Assembly (NCBI GenBank): GCA_942492995.1
Contig: OW818653.1
Coordinates: forward strand, 510,001-542,000
Direction: 5' to 3'
From: an uncultured Erysipelotrichaceae bacterium
GTDB lineage: Bacteria; Bacillota_I; Bacilli_A; Erysipelotrichales; Erysipelotrichaceae
Length of the DNA stretch: 32,000 bases
Shown here: piece by piece, positions 1 through 22,494 of the stretch
Layout of the letters: each line of letters begins with the position of its first letter
How positions within the stretch are numbered: position 1 is the stretch's first letter
The notes under the pieces: generated by a model
Databases searched by the model: none
The model's input: the letters and a program-made list of their open reading frames with translations, nothing else
Told to the model about the DNA's origin: nothing
Program-made: the position numbers and the translations under genes

Positions 1-1
1 A

Positions 2-214
2 GCGGTTTATGGTGGTTATATCGGTATGTTTGACTGGGCAACTATTTGGCCAGTATTCACAGTTATTCTTAAATACGGCGGCTATTTTGGTGTAGCGATC
101 GTTGTAATTGGGATGTTACTTATCCCTCAAATTCAATATGCACGTAATAAAGAAACGTATTTCTTGATCACGGATGATTATGATGCATATGTTAAAAAAG
201 TAAATCAACAATAA
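2..214 (+). CDS. C-terminal fragment of a PTS EIIC permease, ascorbate (SgaT/UlaA) family; 5' end outside window
   Basis: Open frame runs from the window edge (frame of nt 2) to TAA 212-214. It has a hydrophobic TM-like tail (IWPVFTVILKYGGYFGVAIVVIGMLLIP) and sits directly upstream of a UlaB-type EIIB and ulaF/ulaE homologues. The family call is mostly contextual. Confidence 0.55.
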   Translation, partial: AVYGGYIGMFDWATIWPVFTVILKYGGYFGVAIVVIGMLLIPQIQYARNKETYFLITDDYDAYVKKVNQQ

Positions 215-4015: not shown

Positions 4016-4942
4016 ATGGCAAAAATGGCAACTCGTGAAGCGTATGGTAAAGCACTCGCTCAATTAATATTAGAAGATCCAAAAATTGTTGTATTGGATG
4101 CGGATTTAAGTAAATCTACTAAGACAGCAGACGCTAAAGCTGTTTGTCCTGAACGTCATTATAACGTTGGGATTGCGGAAGGGAATATGATGGGAATAGC
4201 GGCTGGTTTAGCAAGCTGTGGAAATACTGTATTTGCTAGTTCTTTCGCAATGTTCGCAACAGGACGTGCATATGAACAAGTACGTAACTCAATTGGATAC
4301 ACACATTTAAATGTTAAGATTTGTGCGACACATGCTGGGATTACTCTTGGTGAAGATGGTGCAAGTCATCAATCCATTGAAGATATCGCTCTTATGCGTG
4401 CAATTCCAGGAATGACAGTTATCCAACCAAGTGATGATATTGAAACTAAACAAGTTATCCGTGCGATTACTCAATTCAATGGACCTTGTTATGTACGTTT
4501 AGGACGTTCAGCTGTAGATACAGTTAATTCAGAAGATTATGTATTTGAACTAGGTAAAGGTGTTGTATTACGTAAAGGTAACGATATAACCTTAATCGCA
4601 ACAGGTATGATGGTTCAACAAGCTCTTATTGCGGCTAATACATTAAGTGAACAAGGAATTGAAGTAAATGTAATAAACATTCACACAATTAAACCTCTTG
4701 ATGAAGCACTTATTCTTGAATACGCAAAGAAATCTAAACTCGTTGTGACATGTGAAGAACATTCAAAATTCGGTGGATTAGGCTCTGCGGTAGCGGAAAC
4801 ATTAAGTAAAAATCATCCAACAAAAATGGCGATGGTTGCGGTTAATGATACATTCGGCGAAAGTGGAACTCCAAATGCATTGATTGAAAAATATGGCTTA
4901 ACTGGAAAAGATATTGTAAAAACTGTTTTAGAATCAATTTAA
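4016..4942 (+). CDS. Transketolase, C-terminal (pyrimidine-binding/C-terminal domain) subunit
   Basis: GGAGGA RBS, start 3 nt after the N-subunit stop. GIAEGNMMGIAAGLA, EDGASHQSIEDIALMR and the C-terminal domain are typical of TktB-type split transketolase. Confidence 0.92.
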   Translation: MAKMATREAYGKALAQLILEDPKIVVLDADLSKSTKTADAKAVCPERHYNVGIAEGNMMGIAAGLASCGNTVFASSFAMFATGRAYEQVRNSIGYTHLNVKICATHAGITLGEDGASHQSIEDIALMRAIPGMTVIQPSDDIETKQVIRAITQFNGPCYVRLGRSAVDTVNSEDYVFELGKGVVLRKGNDITLIATGMMVQQALIAANTLSEQGIEVNVINIHTIKPLDEALILEYAKKSKLVVTCEEHSKFGGLGSAVAETLSKNHPTKMAMVAVNDTFGESGTPNALIEKYGLTGKDIVKTVLESI

Positions 4943-4966
4943 CCCTGATATTCAGGGTTTTTTATT
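4941..4966 (+). terminator. Rho-independent terminator of the ula-type/transketolase operon
   Basis: AACCCTGA-TAT-TCAGGGTT stem-loop overlapping the stop codon, followed by TTTTT. Confidence 0.75.
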
Positions 4967-5004
4967 GCATAAAAATTGTAAGTTCATTAAATTCAGTTTA
5001 TATT
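4965..5004 (+). promoter_or_regulatory. Candidate sigma-A promoter(s) for the B12-binding/ABC operon
   Basis: Two overlapping candidates: TTGCAT (4965-4970)-17 nt-TAAATT (4988-4993), and TTGTAA (4976-4981)-17 nt-TATATT (4999-5004). AT-rich context, so chance matches are likely. Confidence 0.3.
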
Positions 5005-5025
5005 AATAATAGTTAACATTATTAA
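5003..5025. promoter_or_regulatory. Near-perfect AT-rich palindrome (possible operator) between candidate -10 and RBS
   Basis: TTAATAAT-AGTTAAC-ATTATTAA: 8-bp perfect arms around a centre containing GTTAAC. Confidence 0.25.
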
Positions 5026-5046
5026 TTAAATTAAAAAGGAGAATAT

Positions 5047-5679
5047 ATGGAACTATATACTGAGTTCTATTCAGCGTTTGAGAAACTTGAACAAGAGAAA
5101 TGCATAAAATTGGCGCATGATGCATTAAAAAACGGGGATATTGATGTATATGATTTGTATGAATCTGTATTACGTAAATCATTAGCGAATCTGACAGACA
5201 TTGAAACGGATTTAAATCATAAGATATGGAAAGAACATATTCAATCTGGAATTGTTCGTACTATCATTGAACAAGCAAATCCATATGTATTGAGTAAACG
5301 TAACAATACTTTATTATTAAAAGCCGCAGTTATTTGTCCTGATGGTGAACAACATGAATTAGGTGCACGAATGGTAAGTGATTATATCCGAATGATGGGA
5401 TATGAGACTTTTTTTGTGGGAAGAGATACACCGAGAGATGAAATACATGATCTTATCGAAACACTTAAACTAGATGTAGTTGCGATAAGCGTTACAAATT
5501 ACTACAACTTATCAAAAGCATTACAAATGGTTCAAGATATAAAACAGAATTTTCCAACAATAAAATTAATCGTTGGAGGTAGAGGATTAGATGTCAATTC
5601 TGAAGCGTTTCATGAGATTGGCGTTGATGTGACACGAAGTTTTGAAGACATTCAACGTGTTTTGGGGACTAATCTATGA
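5047..5679 (+). CDS. Stand-alone cobalamin (B12)-binding domain protein (helical cap + Rossmann B12-binding domain), no DNA-binding or catalytic domain
   Basis: RBS AAGGAG. Exact canonical B12 motif spacing: E101-x-H103-x-x-G106, 41 residues, S148-V-T150, 26 residues, G177-G178 (classical DxHxxG-41-SxL-26/28-GG). The preceding ~90 aa helical region matches the B12-binding_2 cap position. The stop overlaps the next ATG (ATGA at 5676-5679). Confidence 0.85.
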   Translation: MELYTEFYSAFEKLEQEKCIKLAHDALKNGDIDVYDLYESVLRKSLANLTDIETDLNHKIWKEHIQSGIVRTIIEQANPYVLSKRNNTLLLKAAVICPDGEQHELGARMVSDYIRMMGYETFFVGRDTPRDEIHDLIETLKLDVVAISVTNYYNLSKALQMVQDIKQNFPTIKLIVGGRGLDVNSEAFHEIGVDVTRSFEDIQRVLGTNL

Positions 5680-6809
5680 AATTAGCGTTTTCGATCGCAA
5701 AGCGATTCATTGGTTACAACAAAGGTCAAACAATAATGATTATGGTTGGTATAGCAATTGGAGTCTCTGTACAAATATTTATCGGATTATTGATTACAGG
5801 ACTACAAGAAAGTTTAATTGATAAGACTGTAGGCAGCACACCACATATCACAATCACACAAGAAGAGGATTTAAACTTCGGTGATTTCGAAGTAAAAAAC
5901 GATTCTTATACAGCGGTTGTTTATCAAGCTGATGGACCAGCATTTGCCATTAGCGATAATGATGATGCGTCTGTTTTATTAAGAGGGTTAAGTTCTGAAG
6001 GGGATAAGATTTACAAATTAAACGAAAAGCTTATTGAAGGGAAACTTCCATCCAATAAAAATGATGTCATTATTGGTTCGGGTTTAGTAGAAAAATTAAA
6101 CGTAAAATTAAATGATACTCTTACACTTAGAACAATCAATAATCAAACGGTTGATGTACGAATTGTAGGAATTGTGGATCTAAAGGTAGATGCGATAAAC
6201 AATACGTGGATACTATCTACTCTACCAACAGCGCAAAGTCTATTCGAGTATGACGATAAGATAACATCAATAGCGATACAAGTAAAAGATGTATTCGAAG
6301 CAGATGTATTAGCTGAAGCGATAAAAGATGAAATTACAGTTAGCGATTTAAATGTTGTGAACTGGAAAGAACAAAATGATGATTTATTGAGTGGATTAAA
6401 TGGTCAAAGTATCTCGAGCATTATGATTCAAGTGTTTGTATTAGTTTCAGTAGTATTAGGTATAGCAAGTGTATTAGCAATTACAGTACTACAAAAATCT
6501 AAACAAATAGGTATCTTAAAAGCAATGGGGATTCCAGATAATACAGCGAGCTGGATATTCTTATTTCAAGGTTTAATTCTAGGATTCTATGGAGCTATCT
6601 TAGGTGTATTGTTTGGATTGGGATTAATTATTTCGTTTACAACATTTGCTAGAAATCCTGATGGGACAGCATTAATCGCAATTAGATATGATATTCCATT
6701 CATTCTATTTTCTGGATCAATCGCTATATTCTCAGCATTAATCGCATCATTTATACCGGCTGCACGTTCTAAGAAACTAAGCCCAATTGAGGTCATTCGC
6801 AATGGATAA
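5676..6809 (+). CDS. ABC transporter permease, FtsX/MacB fold, LolC/E-like (377 aa)
   Basis: N-terminal TM (IMIMVGIAIGVSVQIFIGLLI), ~210-aa extracytoplasmic domain beginning GSTPHITI (LolC/E-like), then three C-terminal TMs (FtsX domain). Confidence 0.88.
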   Translation: MKLAFSIAKRFIGYNKGQTIMIMVGIAIGVSVQIFIGLLITGLQESLIDKTVGSTPHITITQEEDLNFGDFEVKNDSYTAVVYQADGPAFAISDNDDASVLLRGLSSEGDKIYKLNEKLIEGKLPSNKNDVIIGSGLVEKLNVKLNDTLTLRTINNQTVDVRIVGIVDLKVDAINNTWILSTLPTAQSLFEYDDKITSIAIQVKDVFEADVLAEAIKDEITVSDLNVVNWKEQNDDLLSGLNGQSISSIMIQVFVLVSVVLGIASVLAITVLQKSKQIGILKAMGIPDNTASWIFLFQGLILGFYGAILGVLFGLGLIISFTTFARNPDGTALIAIRYDIPFILFSGSIAIFSALIASFIPAARSKKLSPIEVIRNG

Positions 6810-7497
6810 TATTGTTCAACTTAAGAATATTACAAAAGTTTATGGAGATAAGATTAAGACCCAAGTTCTATTTGGTTTGAATCTTGAGTTTGAAAAAGGT
6901 AGTTTTAATTCGATTATCGGACAATCTGGAAGTGGCAAAAGTACATTATTGAATATCTTGGGTACGTTAGATGTTCCGACTGATGGTGAGATAATTATAA
7001 ATGGTGTAAATACGAAATCGATGAATCGTAACCAGTTAGCGAAATTAAGAAATGAATCATTAGGGTTTATATTCCAATTTCATTACTTATTACCTGAATT
7101 TACCGCATTGGAGAATGTTTTGATGCCGTATCGAATATTGGGTAAGAAAATCGATGAGAGTGTACTAGAGCGCGCAAATGAATTGATTGATTTAGTTGGT
7201 TTGACAAAAGTCAAAAACAATCTTGCGACGCAAATGTCTGGTGGTCAACAACAACGTACCGCCATTGCTCGATCACTCATGAATAATCCAAGTATAATTC
7301 TAGCGGATGAACCAACAGGTAATCTTGATTCAGATACAACAGCGCAAATTTATGATTTAATGCGTACCATAAATAAGAAATATAATACAACGTTTATTAT
7401 AATTACACATGATCAACATGTAGCAGAGCGCACAGATCGTATCATTGAAATTAAAGATGGAAGGATATTATTGGATATTAGAAAGAATAATGATTGA
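6802..7497 (+). CDS. ABC transporter ATP-binding protein, LolD/MacB-NBD-like
   Basis: ATG 6802 overlaps the permease stop (ATGGATAA), RBS GAGGT 6788-6792. Walker A GQSGSGKST, signature MSGGQQQR, Walker B IILADEPT, H-loop ITHD. Confidence 0.92.
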   Translation: MDNIVQLKNITKVYGDKIKTQVLFGLNLEFEKGSFNSIIGQSGSGKSTLLNILGTLDVPTDGEIIINGVNTKSMNRNQLAKLRNESLGFIFQFHYLLPEFTALENVLMPYRILGKKIDESVLERANELIDLVGLTKVKNNLATQMSGGQQQRTAIARSLMNNPSIILADEPTGNLDSDTTAQIYDLMRTINKKYNTTFIIITHDQHVAERTDRIIEIKDGRILLDIRKNND

Positions 7498-7533: not shown

Positions 7534-7562
7534 TTGACATATTCTTTTTATTTTGTAATATA
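7534..7562 (+). promoter_or_regulatory. Sigma-A promoter of the fructose PTS operon
   Basis: Perfect -35 TTGACA (7534-7539), 16-nt spacer, TG-adjacent -10 TAATAT (7556-7561). Confidence 0.65.
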
Positions 7563-11272: not shown

Positions 11273-12703
11273 ATGAACTTTTTAAAACGTGCATTTCTAA
11301 GTTTAGTTCGAAGAAAAGGTAAATCTTTAATTCTTTTAATCATTATCTTTATTCTAAGTAATGTTATGGCTGGTTCTATCGCAATCGGTCAAGCATCTAA
11401 GAATGTCGAAAAGACGATTAAACTACAATTAGGGGCTAACGCAACCGTTGAACTTGATTGGGAAAAGATGCAAGACTGGAATGAGGATCAATGGAATGCA
11501 TTAGAATATATCACACCAGAAACAGCTGACCAAATTGGTAATTTGTCCTATGTTAAATATTATGATTATAGTTCGGAAACGTATATCAGTTCTTCAACTA
11601 TTACACAATATGATCCAAACATGGTTGAAGTACCTACAGTTAGTTATTTCCCTATAAAAGGTGTTCAATATGCACCAATTTTGGATATTGTGAATGGAAA
11701 TGCGAGCTTAACACAAGGTCGTACATTTAACGATACTGAGATTGCGAATGGTGATTATGTTGGGCTTATTTCTGATAAACTAGCTGAACAAAATAATATA
11801 TTTGTTGGTGATATTGTCTATTTAGTGAATTCATTTCAAATATATAATCCTGATGGAACATTTGAAGAAATTAAACGTGATATCGCGATTGAAGTAATTG
11901 GGATATTTACACCTAAGGTTGAACAATCCACCGAAAACAATGGTGGATGGATTGACTATACTCCATTCAACCGTATTTATGTACCTAATGGAGTCGTTCA
12001 TGCGGAAACTCGTTGGTTAAACGAACAATACGCAATCGCGTATCCTGATTCTAATGTAAGAGTAGATCAAATCTACATTACACCAACATTCGTTTTGAAT
12101 AATCCAGAAGATGTAGAAAGCTTTAGAACTGAAGCTAAGAGCTTATTACCTGATTACTATAAAGTAACAGTATCAAGTGATGCGTATGATTCAGTAGCTG
12201 GTCCGATTAAGTTTATTGGATCATTATCGAACATTATTCTATATGTTGCGATTGGCGCAACAATCCTTATCTTAAGTTTAGTTGTTATATTATTCTTAAG
12301 AGATCGTAAACATGAATTAGGTATCTACTTAGCACTTGGTGAAAAGAAATCTAAAGTTGTTGGTCAAATTCTAATTGAAGTAGTTTCGATTGCTTTAATT
12401 GCGATAACATTATCCTTATTAACCGGTAATTCAATTGCGGAATCTACATCACAATCGATGATTGATTTAAGAAATGAAATCACTGGTAATACTGGTACAG
12501 ATGGTGGCGTTATTTATAAAGATATGGGCTATTATCCTGGCACTGGCGTTACTGAAGATGATGTTATGGAAGCTTACAAAATTCAATTCTCATGGGATTA
12601 TGTTATTATCCTTTATGGAGTAGGGCTTGGAACTGTATTACTTTCAAGTATCGCGCCAATGATTTATATCTTAAGATTAAAACCAAAGAAAATAATGATG
12701 TAA
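11273..12703 (+). CDS. ABC transporter permease, FtsX/MacB fold with large extracytoplasmic domain (476 aa)
   Basis: RBS AAGGAGG. N-terminal TM (SLILLIIIFILSNVMAGSIAI), ~290-aa extracytoplasmic domain, three C-terminal TMs with a ~55-aa insert before the last TM. Single permease gene, implying a homodimer. Confidence 0.88.
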   Translation: MNFLKRAFLSLVRRKGKSLILLIIIFILSNVMAGSIAIGQASKNVEKTIKLQLGANATVELDWEKMQDWNEDQWNALEYITPETADQIGNLSYVKYYDYSSETYISSSTITQYDPNMVEVPTVSYFPIKGVQYAPILDIVNGNASLTQGRTFNDTEIANGDYVGLISDKLAEQNNIFVGDIVYLVNSFQIYNPDGTFEEIKRDIAIEVIGIFTPKVEQSTENNGGWIDYTPFNRIYVPNGVVHAETRWLNEQYAIAYPDSNVRVDQIYITPTFVLNNPEDVESFRTEAKSLLPDYYKVTVSSDAYDSVAGPIKFIGSLSNIILYVAIGATILILSLVVILFLRDRKHELGIYLALGEKKSKVVGQILIEVVSIALIAITLSLLTGNSIAESTSQSMIDLRNEITGNTGTDGGVIYKDMGYYPGTGVTEDDVMEAYKIQFSWDYVIILYGVGLGTVLLSSIAPMIYILRLKPKKIMM

Positions 12704-12713
12704 GAGGTGAACT

Positions 12714-13388
12714 ATGGCAATCCTAAAAGCAAATAATTTAAAGTATTATTATCAAGATGGTGAGAATATAAGAACCATTCTAAAAGATTTAAGTATTGAA
12801 TTTGAAAAAGGTAAATTTTATACGATCTTAGGTCCATCAGGAAGTGGTAAAACAACATTATTATCGTTGTTAGCTGCGTTGGATGAACCTAAAGAAGGTG
12901 TAATTTTGTATAATGATAAAGATATTAAAACCATTGGTTATGAAAAGTATCGTAGAAATATGGTAAGTATCGTATTCCAAAGTTATAACTTAGTACCTTA
13001 TATGACTGCGGTTGAGAACGTAATGATTCCAATGGCGATTACTGAAAATGATATACCTAAGAATTCAAAAGAAGTCGCATATAATTTATTAGATTATATT
13101 GGAATTACTAAAACTAAAGCAGATCGTATTGTAAATAAACTATCAGGTGGTGAGCAACAACGTGTTGCGATTGCTCGATCTCTTGCTAGTAATGTAGATG
13201 TTATCTTTGCGGATGAACCTACTGGTAATTTAGATTCTGAACTTGAAGAAGAGATCATTGGAATCTTTAGAATGCTAGCACATGAACATGGTAAATGTAT
13301 TATTATGGTTACTCACTCCAAAGAAATCGCGGATAAATCCGATGTATCTTACCATTTAAGAAAAGGAGTATTATTACAAAATGAGTGA
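12714..13388 (+). CDS. ABC transporter ATP-binding protein (MacB/FtsE-like NBD)
   Basis: RBS AGAGGTG. Walker [10 protein letters not shown], signature LSGGEQQR, Walker [10 protein letters not shown]-loop VTHS. Confidence 0.92.
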
Positions 13389-14775
13389 TTTTTTGAATAA
13401 ATTTTCTAAACAAGATTACAAAGACGATCAAAAGAAAAAAGCGGAAGAAGTTGTTAAACCAGCTTCTACACCTGAACCAACTCAAACTGTAGTTAGTACT
13501 CCGATTGAGTCAATAAAAACAGTTGAGAAAGTGGAAACTAAAACAATTGAACAAACAGTCAAACATAAACCAAGAGGTTCTCATCAAGAACCTGAAGAAG
13601 TTCACATTGATCCAAGTTATCGTCGTAATCAACGGAATAAATTAATTGGTGGCGTTGTTGCTGTAGTGTTATTAATTGCGATTTCGTTTGGTGCGTATTA
13701 TTTATTGAATCAAGTTCAAGTTCCAGATTATATCAATAAACCTTTCTCAGAACTCAAGACTTGGGCTTCAAGAAATAATGTTGTATTAGAAACTGAGTAC
13801 GCATTCTCATTGGAAGTTTCGCAGGATTATGTCATTGAAATGAATCCACTCGCAAATTCTAACGTTCAAAAAGGTTCGATTATGCGCGTTATCGTAAGTA
13901 GTGGTGCTGATCCAGATGAGCTTATACAAGTTCCTGATTTCACAGGCAACTCATATGGACAAATACAAGATTGGTTAAATTCCAATAAAATAAATAACTT
14001 ACGTATTACATATGAAAACAATGAAGACATTCCTGTCAATGAATATGTAAAGATTGTATTCAATGATAAAACTGTAACGAGTGACAATTATACGCGAAAA
14101 GACTATGGATTAATTTATATCTCAAATGGTCCAATTGTATATGAAAAGAATATCGAAGTACCTGATTGGTCTACGACTAACGCGAATGTTGGAGTTGTGG
14201 AAGCATGGGGCCTTCAAAATGATGTAAGTATCATTGTAAAACTTGTTAATTCATCAACTGTTGCGATGAATGGTGTAATTAACCAAAGTGTTGCGCCTAA
14301 AACAATGGTTTCGAAGAAATCATCGATTACAATTTCTGTATCATTAGGTCAAGTTGTAGTTGTGCCTGATTTCTCTAAGATATCTAAAGAAGAAGCCGCA
14401 TCTGTAACACTTAATAATGCGATTGTTAAATATGTAGAAATGTATCAACCTGCAACTGGCGCTAAGTATGGTAATTATATTTGGCAAGATGTTAAGGCGG
14501 GCACAAATGTAAATCAAAGTAGTACGACTAAGTTAGTTATTACTGTTTATTATTCATTAGGTAGACCGTATTTAAATAGTCTATCTGGACAAAAAGAATC
14601 TGTAATACCTGATATTATTTATAATTTTAACAAGGATACAGCTAATTTTACCTACACAATAAATTATGTAAACAGTAGTGAAGAAAAGGGTAATATCGTA
14701 TCCATGTCGCCTACTAATCAATACGTTGATCCAGGTCAACATATTGTGTTTGAAGTTTCAAACGGAACACCTTGA
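13381..14775 (+). CDS. Single-pass membrane protein with five tandem PASTA-like domains; no kinase or transpeptidase domain
   Basis: ATG 13381 overlaps the ATPase stop (ATGAGTGA), RBS AAAGGAG 13363-69. It has a K/E/T/P-rich ~86-aa N-terminus and a TM at aa 87-109. Five ~65-70-aa repeats follow, each opening VPD[YFW] (or IPD) and closing in a V/I-S-x-G strand (IVSSG, YISNG, SVSLG, YYSLG, EVSNG). Confidence 0.85.
   Translation: MSDFLNKFSKQDYKDDQKKKAEEVVKPASTPEPTQTVVSTPIESIKTVEKVETKTIEQTVKHKPRGSHQEPEEVHIDPSYRRNQRNKLIGGVVAVVLLIAISFGAYYLLNQVQVPDYINKPFSELKTWASRNNVVLETEYAFSLEVSQDYVIEMNPLANSNVQKGSIMRVIVSSGADPDELIQVPDFTGNSYGQIQDWLNSNKINNLRITYENNEDIPVNEYVKIVFNDKTVTSDNYTRKDYGLIYISNGPIVYEKNIEVPDWSTTNANVGVVEAWGLQNDVSIIVKLVNSSTVAMNGVINQSVAPKTMVSKKSSITISVSLGQVVVVPDFSKISKEEAASVTLNNAIVKYVEMYQPATGAKYGNYIWQDVKAGTNVNQSSTTKLVITVYYSLGRPYLNSLSGQKESVIPDIIYNFNKDTANFTYTINYVNSSEEKGNIVSMSPTNQYVDPGQHIVFEVSNGTP
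13714..14766 (+). repeat. Protein-level tandem repeat: five PASTA-like modules (aa ~112-175, 182-250, 258-323, 326-394, 397-462)
   Basis: Recurrent pattern: VPD-x-x-(G/N/S)-x(3-6)-amphipathic helix, then beta strands ending hydrophobic-x-(V/I)S-x-G. Repeats are diverged at the DNA level, with no nucleotide repeat. Confidence 0.7.
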
Positions 14776-21024: not shown

Positions 21025-22494
21025 TTAATGTTCGTGATGTCTATGAACGTTGATATCACTGAAATCATACAGTTCTAATGTTTTCTTAATCGAACGTGTA
21101 ATATCAGGTGCGTTTTCTTTATCAACTTTAACTTTAACTTTTATTGAGTTATCGATTACGGCTGGACCATTTGCACATCCACCCTTACAAGACATACCTT
21201 CACAGATATTAGCAGGATAACGACCAGCTTTAATAATCATCATGGCCTTCTTACATTCATGAATTCCATCTGCGTATTGAGCAGTAAACGGCATATTATC
21301 ATCTTCTTTAAATGCTTGAACAAGTGCTTTTGAAACACCACCACCAAACGCAAAGTTACGTGCAAATATACTTGCTTCAACATTTTTTTCAACGACGAGT
21401 TCTGATAAGTAAATATGTTGCGATACGAGCATTGCGGCGATTTCTTCATAGGTTAAGACATAATCAACTTCATGACCATCCATACCTTCTTGTTTCTTCG
21501 CAACACATGGACCAATGAATACAACTGAATAGTCTGGATAACGTTTTTTAATATAACGTGCCATCGCAACCATTGGAGAAACCATCGTAGACATATTCTT
21601 TTCATAGACTTGAGGGAAATGTTGACGAGCTAGATTAACAAATGCTGGGCAACATGATGTCGTCATAGTTGTATTTTCAGCCATTTTTTCTTTAAGTTCA
21701 TCTTTTTCATACCAAGCTACAATATCAGCCCCAACCGCAACTTCTACAACTTCCGCAAAACCAAGTTTTTTAATTCCAACTTTAATTTGATCGAGTGTTG
21801 CACTATCGAATTGTCCTTGAATGGATGGCGCTATCATCGCAACAGTAGGCTTACCTTGCTTAATACCATCAATGACATTAACAATCCATGATTGATCTTC
21901 AATCGCTCCAAATGGACATGCGGATTGACATGCGGCACAATTAATACATTTTTCTTCATTAATCTGCGCAATATTATGTGCATCTAATGTAATCGCATCG
22001 ACAGCACAGGATGCTTTACAAGGTCTTGGTGTATCGATTATCGCATTGAATGGACATGCTTTAACACATGCACCACATTCAACACATTTTTCATGATCAA
22101 TTACTGCACGATTTGAACCCATTGAAATGGCATCAAACTTACATGCACTACGACAACTCTTTGCCATACATTTACGACAGTTATCAGTAATTTGGATTCT
22201 TTCAATTGTACAACCATCGCATGCGGCTTCTAATACTTTAACAATTTGTTTTGGCTTAATTTCTGAGTTTAATTTTGGGGTAGGGTTTTTGCCCATAGCG
22301 ACACGTACACGTTGACGAATTATTTCACGTTCTTTATACACGCAGCATCTAAATTCCGCATGATTATGTGGAATTAATTTATACGCTAATTCATCATCAA
22401 ATTTATCTGTTAATGTTCCATCAAATGCTTTAATAGATACTTCTCTTAATACATCAAATTTAAACTGTCTAGCTTCATGATCGAATAGTCCCAT
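21025..22494 (-). CDS. [FeFe]-hydrogenase-like protein with N-terminal ferredoxin-type clusters (489 aa)
   Basis: H-cluster signatures TSCCPAF (L1), GPCVAKKQE (L2) and EGMSCKGGCANGP (L3). Two classical CxxCxxCxxxCP motifs (CVECGACVKACP, CINCAACQSACP) plus extra Cys clusters upstream. RBS AAGGGG. Confidence 0.85.
   Translation of the reverse strand: MGLFDHEARQFKFDVLREVSIKAFDGTLTDKFDDELAYKLIPHNHAEFRCCVYKEREIIRQRVRVAMGKNPTPKLNSEIKPKQIVKVLEAACDGCTIERIQITDNCRKCMAKSCRSACKFDAISMGSNRAVIDHEKCVECGACVKACPFNAIIDTPRPCKASCAVDAITLDAHNIAQINEEKCINCAACQSACPFGAIEDQSWIVNVIDGIKQGKPTVAMIAPSIQGQFDSATLDQIKVGIKKLGFAEVVEVAVGADIVAWYEKDELKEKMAENTTMTTSCCPAFVNLARQHFPQVYEKNMSTMVSPMVAMARYIKKRYPDYSVVFIGPCVAKKQEGMDGHEVDYVLTYEEIAAMLVSQHIYLSELVVEKNVEASIFARNFAFGGGVSKALVQAFKEDDNMPFTAQYADGIHECKKAMMIIKAGRYPANICEGMSCKGGCANGPAVIDNSIKVKVKVDKENAPDITRSIKKTLELYDFSDINVHRHHEH

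Follow-up and report, generated by a model that had tools for sequence, protein, structure and literature searches.

A stand-alone cobalamin-binding-domain protein encoded in a conserved, translationally coupled module with a type VII ABC transporter in bacteria and archaea

Within a 32,000-nucleotide stretch of the genome of an uncultured Erysipelotrichaceae bacterium (assembly GCA_942492995.1, contig OW818653.1, positions 510,001 to 542,000; hereafter the window), we analysed a compact locus of three genes encoding a small cobalamin-binding-domain (CBD) protein and the two components of an ATP-binding cassette (ABC) transporter. A first-pass annotation, made from the sequence alone, had described these genes as three translationally coupled open reading frames (ORFs), and re-reading their coordinates and both overlaps showed this description to be correct. 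The trio is organized as follows:

Positions 5047-5679, plus strand: gene for the CBD protein, 210 aa (ORF call).
Positions 5676-6809, plus strand: gene for a MacB_PCD/FtsX permease, 377 aa (ORF call and Pfam).
Positions 6802-7497, plus strand: gene for a LolD/MacB-class ABC ATPase with an ATG start, 231 aa (ORF call and Pfam).

The stop codon of the CBD gene overlaps the permease start in the ATGA at 5676-5679, and the permease stop overlaps the ATPase start in ATGGATAA at 6802-6809. A scan of one genome per GTDB species returned 217 relatives, of which the best 80 loci were kept; the three window proteins were run by tblastn against 84 loci, with about 89 loci covered overall after later look-ups. 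The hosts span Erysipelotrichaceae, Carnobacteriaceae, many Clostridia, Kosmotogaceae/Thermotogota, Chloroflexota, Thermoplasmata/Methanomassiliicoccales, and a metagenome-assembled genome (MAG) of Promethearchaeota (Asgard); orthologues occur in cultured hosts such as Jeotgalibaca sp. A122, Fundicoccus ignavus DSM 109652, Clostridium punense DSM 28650, Pseudobacteroides cellulosolvens, and Senegalia massiliensis. Across these lineages, 83 of the 84 loci have the permease gene directly after the CBD gene, the single exception (L027) ending 11 nt past the CBD match, and the ATPase gene comes next after the permease gene in all 77 loci that are long enough. This order is maintained over a wide range of tblastn identities to the window proteins (ATPase 60-97%, permease 38-94%, CBD protein 35-94%), the closest genome being the MAG Erysipelotrichaceae bacterium SMAG_U955 (L005), with trio proteins 94-97% identical to those of the window. 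The coupling itself is also conserved: the CBD stop and permease start share a 4-nt overlap in 44 of 76 loci, almost all loci having either an overlap or a spacing of at most 4 nt, and the permease stop and ATPase start share an 8-nt overlap in 64 of 77. Synteny in relatives had been posed as a test of the first-pass annotation, and the trio was found together in all relatives, across phyla and domains.

The linkage was also observed in the reverse direction. All three permease homologs looked up (56-71% identical), which were chosen without regard to the CBD gene, have a gene with only a PF02310 domain directly upstream and an ATPase gene downstream, and three further look-ups based on the CBD protein found the ABC pair in every case. 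Identity to the window permease is 55% or higher throughout the 120 best permease homologs. When 841 flanking ORFs were clustered, only the CBD, permease, and ATPase families were common, the remainder being lineage-specific, and no fourth conserved family (adaptor, hydrolase, methyltransferase, or binding protein) was found among them. The trio arrangement is far beyond chance, and the three genes form a self-contained, horizontally spread module.

Two short stretches of the CBD gene encode the residues on which assignment of its product largely turns:

Positions 5227-5238, plus strand: codons of W61-K62-E63-H64, in which EH matches E141/H142 of the TtCarH signature (family and profile alignments).
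Positions 5347-5364, plus strand: codons of the ExHxxG loop E101-Q-H103-E-L-G106, with the predicted lower axial His ligand (His103, CAT at 5353-5355) and invariant E101, H103, and G106.

The first-pass annotation had read in this protein a canonical cobalamin-binding spacing behind a helical cap, with no domain for DNA binding or catalysis, and each of these points withstood closer analysis. The spacing is E101-x-H103-x-x-G106, 41 residues, S148-V-T150, 26 residues, G177-G178, with His103 and the W61-K-E63-H64 string at the positions given. An AlphaFold2 (AF2) model (predicted local distance difference test, pLDDT, 90.5; predicted template-modelling score, pTM, 0.88) places an N-terminal helical bundle over a Rossmann domain; the protein begins directly with the bundle, and Pfam and NCBIfam searches found no helix-turn-helix (HTH), methyltransferase, or mutase domain in it. 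Of the two Pfam families that had been expected, PF02310 (B12-binding) was matched at 6.9e-16 over residues 92-195 and is the sole Pfam domain of the 210-aa protein, whereas PF02607 gave no score at E<=0.1.

Residue conservation was scored in 82 members of the CBD family linked to the trio. Ten residues are invariant in all 82 (Y38, E63, H64, E75, E101, H103, G106, A107, G125, and G178), and two are nearly so: W61 (81/82) and C97, just before the His loop (80/82). A signature for light-responsive CBDs, comprising GxxW, EH, GxxH, and GxxxP, has been defined by SignatureFinder (PMC11796333). The window protein carries three of these four elements, EH (E63-H64), GxxH (G100-H103), and GxxxP (G125-P129), and lacks GxxW; G100, the glycine of GxxH, is conserved in only 26 of the 82 members. 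CarH requires the Trp of a Wx9EH motif to bind adenosylcobalamin (AdoCbl). At this position, ten residues before EH, the window has Glu53, with T50-x-x-E53 aligned to the GxxW slot, and the family as a whole is mixed (E 30, Y 16, L 8, D 7, and W, F, and H 3 each; n=82), Tyr being found in the Carnobacteriaceae clade linked to crt and uvdE genes. The earlier statement that the Wx9EH spacing is absent holds for the window, but some members of the family keep W, Y, or F. We also observed a C-x7-C pair, at window positions 51 and 59, in about 25 of the 82 members, mostly Clostridia with some archaea and Thermotogota; it sits in a low-confidence loop before IWKEH, and the clade of the window has Asp and Lys instead.

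Comparison with proteins of known structure related the family most closely to sensory CBDs. A family profile searched against the PDB gave as its best match CtMerR (8jbs, 2.9e-14), covering both the bundle and the Rossmann domain and placing the window IWKEH on NIWEEH, followed by the photocobilins 8j2w/8j2x (2.5e-12), the corrinoid protein MttC (7xcn, 3.8e-10), AerR (7te2, 2.5e-5, 27 bits), and TtCarH (5c8a, 5.8e-5). CtMerR is an experimentally validated green-light receptor that uses AdoCbl (PMC11796333). Foldseek searches with the AF2 model likewise ranked photoreceptor CBDs at the top, with the photocobilins 8j2x/8j2w at a TM-score of 0.85-0.86, CtMerR (8jbs/8jbt) at 0.77-0.82, and about 40 TtCarH chains (5c8a/5c8d) at 0.72-0.77, while MttC aligns at only about 0.5 because its inter-domain arrangement differs from that of the model. 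Thus, sequence alone leaves the class of the CBD protein unsettled, and comparison of the predicted structure settles it in favour of the sensor/photoreceptor class. Grouping with methyltransferase corrinoid proteins had been named beforehand as a finding that would count against the first-pass inference, and the protein instead groups structurally with sensory and photoreceptor CBDs.

Within the class formed by CarH/LitR, CtMerR, and the photocobilins, the window protein shares the closed arrangement in which the bundle caps the Rossmann domain (TM-scores of 0.72-0.86), the His of ExHxxG, EH, and GxxxP, and with CtMerR also the string IWxEH. It has the four-helix bundle and Rossmann CBD of CarH/LitR, with the lower axial His in E/DxHxxG...SxL/T/V...GG, but differs from the class in having no MerR/HTH, globin-like, or enzyme output domain, and from CarH in having Glu53 for the Trp of Wx9EH (EH being kept) and no detectable PF02607. 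The NF052513 CarH profile is matched over positions 137-267 only, at 39.6 bits against a cut-off of 400. A further difference lies in the partner, which for this family is invariably an ABC transporter, whereas the CarH class acts on DNA or on a fused enzyme. AerR/PpaA proteins resemble the window protein in being stand-alone, in lacking an output domain, and in being thought to act on a partner, and AerR 7te2 is of similar length (213 aa). However, sequence likeness to them is weak (27 bits), the hosts here are not phototrophs, and no CrtJ/PpsR-type gene was found among the conserved or frequent neighbours of the trio. The N-terminal His that is the upper ligand in AerR has no evident counterpart in the window protein. 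The MtaC/MtbC/MttC proteins (TIGR02370) are also two-domain corrinoid proteins of about 210 aa with a cap and a Rossmann domain, from which the window protein departs in its TIGR02370 score (30.1 bits against a cut-off of 215.3), in its ExHxxG rather than DxHxxG motif, in inter-domain geometry, and in having no methyltransferase neighbours.

A search with the CBD protein recovered 285 homologous clusters, essentially all of about 210 aa with PF02310 only, and an exhaustive search with a profile gave 201 clusters at the 50% identity level with E<=1e-30, almost all of them 205-230 aa long. The next architectures outward are XRE-HTH (HTH_3)-CBD and globin-like-CBD proteins, both carrying the canonical Wx9EH; other long profile matches beyond these have unannotated extensions. 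The family forms a separate branch within the sensory CBDs, one without an output domain. Its database names conflict, members being variously called "methanogenic corrinoid protein MtbC1", "MerR family light-induced transcriptional regulator", and "cobalamin B12-binding domain-containing protein".

The two downstream proteins have the layout of a type VII (MacB/FtsX-fold) ABC system, with a first transmembrane helix (TM1), a large extracytoplasmic domain of the Porter/Sabre type, TM2-4, and a cytoplasmic nucleotide-binding domain (NBD). The permease matches MacB_PCD (5.1e-14) and FtsX (4.3e-13) in Pfam, and among PDB sequences it is closest to LolF (4.5e-18) and LolE, followed by MacB, LolC, and FtsX. 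In its AF2 model (pLDDT 74.7), a TM1 helix (residues 16-50) is followed by a beta-rich domain (57-229) and three long helices (248-359), corresponding to an extracytoplasmic domain of about 200 aa (MacB_PCD) and an FtsX-type three-helix C-terminal bundle; Foldseek aligned this model with LolE (TM-score 0.78) and also with LolC, MacB, YtrF, HrtB (0.5), and YbbP. The ATPase matches ABC_tran (6.3e-31) and LolD structures (1.8e-61). The pair had been termed LolCDE-like, which is accurate as to fold but fails at both curated cut-offs, the scores being 133 against 362 bits for lolCE (TIGR02212) and 268 against 307.75 bits for LolD (TIGR02211). With only one permease gene, the system is expected to form a homodimer, like LolDF or MacB. 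The transporter is thus a presumably homodimeric type VII ABC machine and not LolCDE itself.

In its four-TM permease with a large domain between TM1 and TM2, its FtsX bundle, and its LolD-class NBD, the pair resembles LolCDE/LolDF, MacB, FtsEX, YtrEF, YbbAP, and HrtBA. In contrast to true LolCDE, whose hosts are diderm, it falls below the LolCE and LolD cut-offs and, going by record titles, belongs to bacteria (Bacillota, Thermotogota, and Chloroflexota) that are presumably monoderm and to archaea, probably without an outer membrane or LolA/LolB; unlike known type VII systems, it has no conserved adaptor or hydrolase partner gene. No type VII system with a cytoplasmic cofactor-binding accessory subunit was found in the literature searched.

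In the window, the module lies between recognizable boundaries, in agreement with the first-pass view of a discrete operon closed off by a terminator-like hairpin and the promoter-like site of a fructose phosphotransferase system (PTS) operon:

Positions 4941-4959, plus strand: terminator-like hairpin at the end of a transketolase operon, the left module boundary (8-bp stem, 4 GC pairs, T-run).
Positions 4976-5004, plus strand: promoter-like site TTGTAA-17-TATATT for the trio operon (consensus match only).
Positions 5002-5026, no strand assigned: perfect 9-nt inverted repeat ATTAATAAT-N7-ATTATTAAT (100% complementary), between the -10-like hexamer and the ribosome-binding site of the CBD gene.
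Positions 7534-7561, plus strand: strong promoter-like site TTGACA-16-TAATAT for the fructose-PTS operon, the right module boundary (10/12 match).

In relatives, compensatory changes preserve the hairpin upstream of the trio. Eight aligned upstream regions share the -35-like TTGTAA/TTGAAT, but the number of promoter-like matches around 4976-5004 does not exceed that in shuffled sequence, so that this site is weak by itself. The inverted repeat has a core, TAATnGTTAAYA, that is conserved upstream of the trio in seven relatives; it may be an operator, although a chance origin is possible in so AT-rich a region. On the right, the fructose-type operon comprises PTS_EIIA_2, DeoR, PfkB, and PTS EIIBC domains (as read in the syntenic locus L001), and it is missing from L087, where the trio is otherwise the same. 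Further downstream in the window we observed a second type VII ABC system (11273-14775), consisting of a 476-aa MacB_PCD/FtsX permease, a 224-aa ABC ATPase, and a 464-aa PASTA-domain protein. In L087 this second system lies directly 3' of the CBD trio owing to the absence of the fru operon. The window also encodes, on the minus strand at 21028-22494, an Fe-only hydrogenase with ferredoxin-type clusters, from which its host looks to be anaerobic or fermentative.

Beyond the trio, the surrounding genes vary by lineage and show recurrent themes. A Pfam scan of 123 immediate neighbours identified TetR (8) and UvdE (6) as the commonest families, with AhpC, glutathione peroxidase, flavodoxin, and amine-oxidase-type desaturases at lower counts. 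In three Carnobacteriaceae loci (L018, 2008-8759; L019; L031), the trio is part of a cluster on one strand in the order crtN-crtM-tetR-CBD-permease-ATPase-uvdE::DUF1722, where crtN encodes a desaturase and crtM an SQS_PSY protein; parts of this crt/tetR/uvdE cluster are held by L021, L027, and L066, and L035 has a rearranged order. A TetR gene stands directly upstream of the CBD gene in nine Carnobacteriaceae loci, mostly in or beside such clusters, and its product may be a further partner for the CBD protein. Outside this family, uvdE::DUF1722 adjoins the trio in L036 (Clostridium), L045, L048 (an Anaerovoracaceae MAG), and L074. In L050 (2761-7625), a Clostridiaceae MAG, two more genes come after the trio on the same strand, with gaps of 34 and 11 nt: first that for RudS, a 2-thiouracil desulfurase (TudS desulfidase) joined to DUF1722, and then that for a DNA photolyase. 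The gene content of this locus equals that of light operons controlled by LitR, with the CBD-ABC trio in the place of LitR. A photolyase gene also adjoins the trio in L085, whose permease is 59% identical to that of the window. DUF1722/RudS, photolyase, and carotenoid genes are reported as typical contents of light-responsive operons (PMC11417400).

The uvdE and photolyase genes were seen ten times near the trio, in at least six lineages, against an estimate of about 0.3 occurrences for any given single-copy gene in about 0.9 Mb of flanking sequence. The CBD proteins of the loci with such ultraviolet (UV)- or light-related neighbours are only 34-56% identical to one another (except L036 and L050, at 82%), which argues for several independent associations. 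Other arrangements were observed in single or few loci. In L048 (3518-8089), uvdE::DUF1722 is divergent upstream of the trio and a cNMP-binding/HTH_Crp_2 (Crp/FNR-type) regulator is convergent downstream; this Crp-type arrangement is reminiscent of LdrP in the Thermus light regulon, as cited in PMC11417400. A DUF6512 protein adjoins the trio in two unrelated loci, L036 (4292-4864) and L045 (4372-4995), both of which also contain uvdE. Large PAS-GGDEF-HD(-GYP) signalling proteins lie directly downstream of the trio in L086 (7614-9152) and L088 (7755-10439), and in L088 a radical SAM gene of the PA0069/Rv2578c family, which is named "DNA repair photolyase" in COG, lies two genes upstream of the CBD gene.

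Conversely, genes and elements of B12 metabolism were not associated with the module. Rfam searches found no cobalamin riboswitch in the window and none before the module in 13 diverse loci, no B12-pathway (cob/cbi/btu) or substrate-binding-protein gene was linked to the trio among the clustered flanking ORFs, and no methyltransferase was a conserved neighbour in the approximately 89 loci. The sole riboswitch match among the 13 loci (L004, Senegalia massiliensis, 1-156, minus strand, 100.8 bits) is 6 kb from the trio, points away from it, acts on genes that lie beyond the end of the locus, and is thus unlinked to the module. A role in B12 import was rejected on the lack of a riboswitch in front of the module, as was a defence system, for which PADLOC returned only generic ABC-ATPase likenesses and one weak match, to CARF_LolE_TM, while the CBD protein matched no entry.

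With moderate confidence, we favour the reading that a CarH-class B12 sensor, most likely of light, is a cytoplasmic subunit that regulates a homodimeric type VII ABC machine. This reading is based on the strict, bidirectional, cross-domain linkage of the CBD protein with permease and ATPase; on conserved translational coupling; on the sensor-class nature of the CBD as judged from Foldseek, the profile match, the invariant residues, and three of four signature elements; on light/UV neighbours in several independent arrangements; and on the precedent of photocobilins that regulate in trans. Stand-alone photocobilins control a partner enzyme through protein-protein contact (PMC10979010). From this evidence we infer that the protein binds cobalamin, that light is its signal, and that it directly contacts the transporter; the proposals below on the direction of regulation and on the substrate are of the same kind. 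A regulatory subunit had been proposed by the first-pass annotation with cobalamin, light, or redox as alternative triggers; the light-related version gains support from the fold, the motifs, and the uvdE, photolyase, RudS, and carotenoid neighbours, so that the proposal is upheld in part.

Under the favoured reading, the CBD protein would be a cytoplasmic His-on cobalamin sensor of the CarH/CtMerR/photocobilin class from which its own output domain is absent, and its dedicated partner would be the co-translated LolF/LolE-like permease and LolD-like ATPase, a "mechanotransmission" machine. As in CarH and the photocobilins, the state of the bound cobalamin would either shift the helical bundle relative to the Rossmann domain or change how the CBD protein oligomerizes, the likeliest trigger being photolysis of the Co-C bond to the upper ligand by light. 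This change might switch binding to the cytoplasmic face of the transporter, either the NBD dimer or the permease, and so gate ATP hydrolysis, which would in turn control the mechanical work done by the extracytoplasmic domain. Physiologically, the module may be part of a photoprotection or UV response, for example by pulling out of the membrane a hydrophobic compound that is photosensitising or has been damaged by light, or by activating an envelope factor.

Several observations weigh against this reading. The glycine of GxxH is variable in the family, and an aromatic residue or His occupies the canonical Trp position of Wx9EH in only 25 of 82 members; as the canonical Trp is not conserved and this glycine varies, the upper ligand of the bound cobalamin may not be adenosyl. 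No CBD-FtsX or CBD-ABC fusion occurs among the best 150 family representatives, and neither Pfam nor the permease AF2 model reveals an added docking domain on the ATPase or permease. Most loci, including the 32 kb of the window, have no light-related neighbour, and the neighbourhood themes are partly non-independent, coming from clades of related MAGs. Many hosts are anaerobes, as the Fe-only hydrogenase of the window and the presence of methanogen relatives among the other hosts illustrate, and some probably derive from digester communities, to judge by MAG and isolate names only. Light is rarely met in such settings.

In one alternative the sensor works in the dark, the CBD protein reporting cobalamin availability or the oxidation or ligand state of Co and tuning the ABC machine accordingly, by analogy with AerR, which acts on a partner protein by means of a particular form of cobalamin. 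We consider this somewhat unlikely, if the strongest of the competing explanations. The adenosyl-capping Trp is missing in most members and the hosts are largely anaerobes; the near-invariant C97, the variable Cys pair in the bundle loop of about 25 of 82 members, and the peroxiredoxin, glutathione-peroxidase, and flavodoxin neighbours in several loci would also suit a redox or B12-status sensor. However, a CarH-type pocket is suggested by the invariant EH and by domains that are arranged in the closed manner of the photoreceptors, and the recurrent neighbours are genes for UV/light repair (uvdE, photolyase, RudS) and carotenoids rather than for B12 metabolism, with no link to B12 riboswitches or cob/cbi/btu genes seen.

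Alternatively, the CBD protein might be a cytoplasmic corrinoid carrier that passes cobalamin to or from an ABC system exporting, importing, or detoxifying corrinoids or tetrapyrroles. The protein very probably binds a corrinoid, as its Pfam match and motif conservation indicate, and the type VII heme exporter HrtBA matches the permease at a TM-score of 0.5; MacAB-TolC, moreover, exports protoporphyrin. Nevertheless, the permease is nearer to LolE/LolF than to HrtB, the CBD protein resembles sensors and not carriers, the module has no cobalamin riboswitch before it in the window or the 13 diverse loci, and no substrate-binding-protein or B12-pathway gene is conserved nearby. Judging by published structures, the type VII fold has no transmembrane substrate channel from the cytoplasm. 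This option, which the first-pass annotation had also offered, is disfavoured by the riboswitch and gene-content results together with the type VII fold, and we regard it as improbable.

We give a similarly low probability to the view that the CBD protein is chiefly the light-dependent partner of a transcription factor, acting like AerR as an antirepressor on TetR in Carnobacteriaceae or on the Crp-like protein in L048, with the ABC pair as a co-regulated effector. AerR-CrtJ is a precedent for a CBD protein acting on a transcription factor, though AerR 7te2 matches the family only weakly. The TetR genes directly upstream of the CBD gene in the nine Carnobacteriaceae loci and the Crp/FNR-type gene adjoining the trio in L048 are in keeping with such a role, but these regulators are lineage-specific and most loci have no regulator gene beside the trio. 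The ABC pair, by contrast, is present throughout and overlaps the CBD gene. Finally, that the protein is a methyl-transfer corrinoid protein of the MtaC/MtbC/MttC type, with methyltransferases encoded elsewhere and incidental ABC adjacency, is very improbable and essentially excluded by cut-offs, geometry, and neighbourhood: against the profile match to MttC 7xcn (3.8e-10), the 30 bits scored with TIGR02370, and the JGI label "methanogenic corrinoid protein MtbC1" on several members stand the TIGR02370 cut-off of 215 bits, ExH instead of DxH, a domain arrangement unlike that of MttC (TM-score 0.5), the absence of a conserved methyltransferase neighbour in the approximately 89 loci, an ABC pair that is always present and translationally coupled, and the many hosts that are not methylotrophs.

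Returning to the favoured reading of a light-sensing regulatory subunit, the best-supported account is that a CarH-class sensor has replaced an output through DNA binding with a partner to which it is not covalently joined, the type VII ABC machine. In the literature searched, the coverage of which is incomplete, we found no report of a CBD protein alongside a transporter of the MacB/FtsX/Lol type; what appears to be new is therefore the combination of a known B12 sensory module with a known type VII ABC system. More tentatively, and with less confidence than attaches to the regulatory reading as such, we propose that the trio is a widespread, horizontally mobile "photo-ABC" module in which a B12 photoreceptor, as a detachable cytoplasmic subunit, would light-switch a type VII ABC ATPase. 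It would then be the first case of a cobalamin photoreceptor coupled to a transporter, and of a MacB/Lol/FtsEX-type machine with a regulatory subunit that senses a cofactor. Such a module would range from Erysipelotrichaceae to Asgard archaea and serve photoprotection in non-phototrophs, anaerobes included.

The family analysis corrects the inconsistent database names under which these proteins appear, such as "MtbC1 corrinoid protein" and "MerR light-induced regulator". The B12-based sensors known so far act on DNA binding or on an enzyme that is either fused to them or a partner, and the CBD-ABC pairing suggests a new class of output for B12 photobiology. An ATPase and membrane machine that could possibly be switched by green light would also have optogenetic appeal. 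For the transporters themselves, the pairing offers a handle on the poorly understood roles of Lol-like ABC systems in organisms without an outer membrane, and for their hosts it hints at a response to light or UV in anaerobic Bacillota and archaea, which are usually assumed not to sense light.

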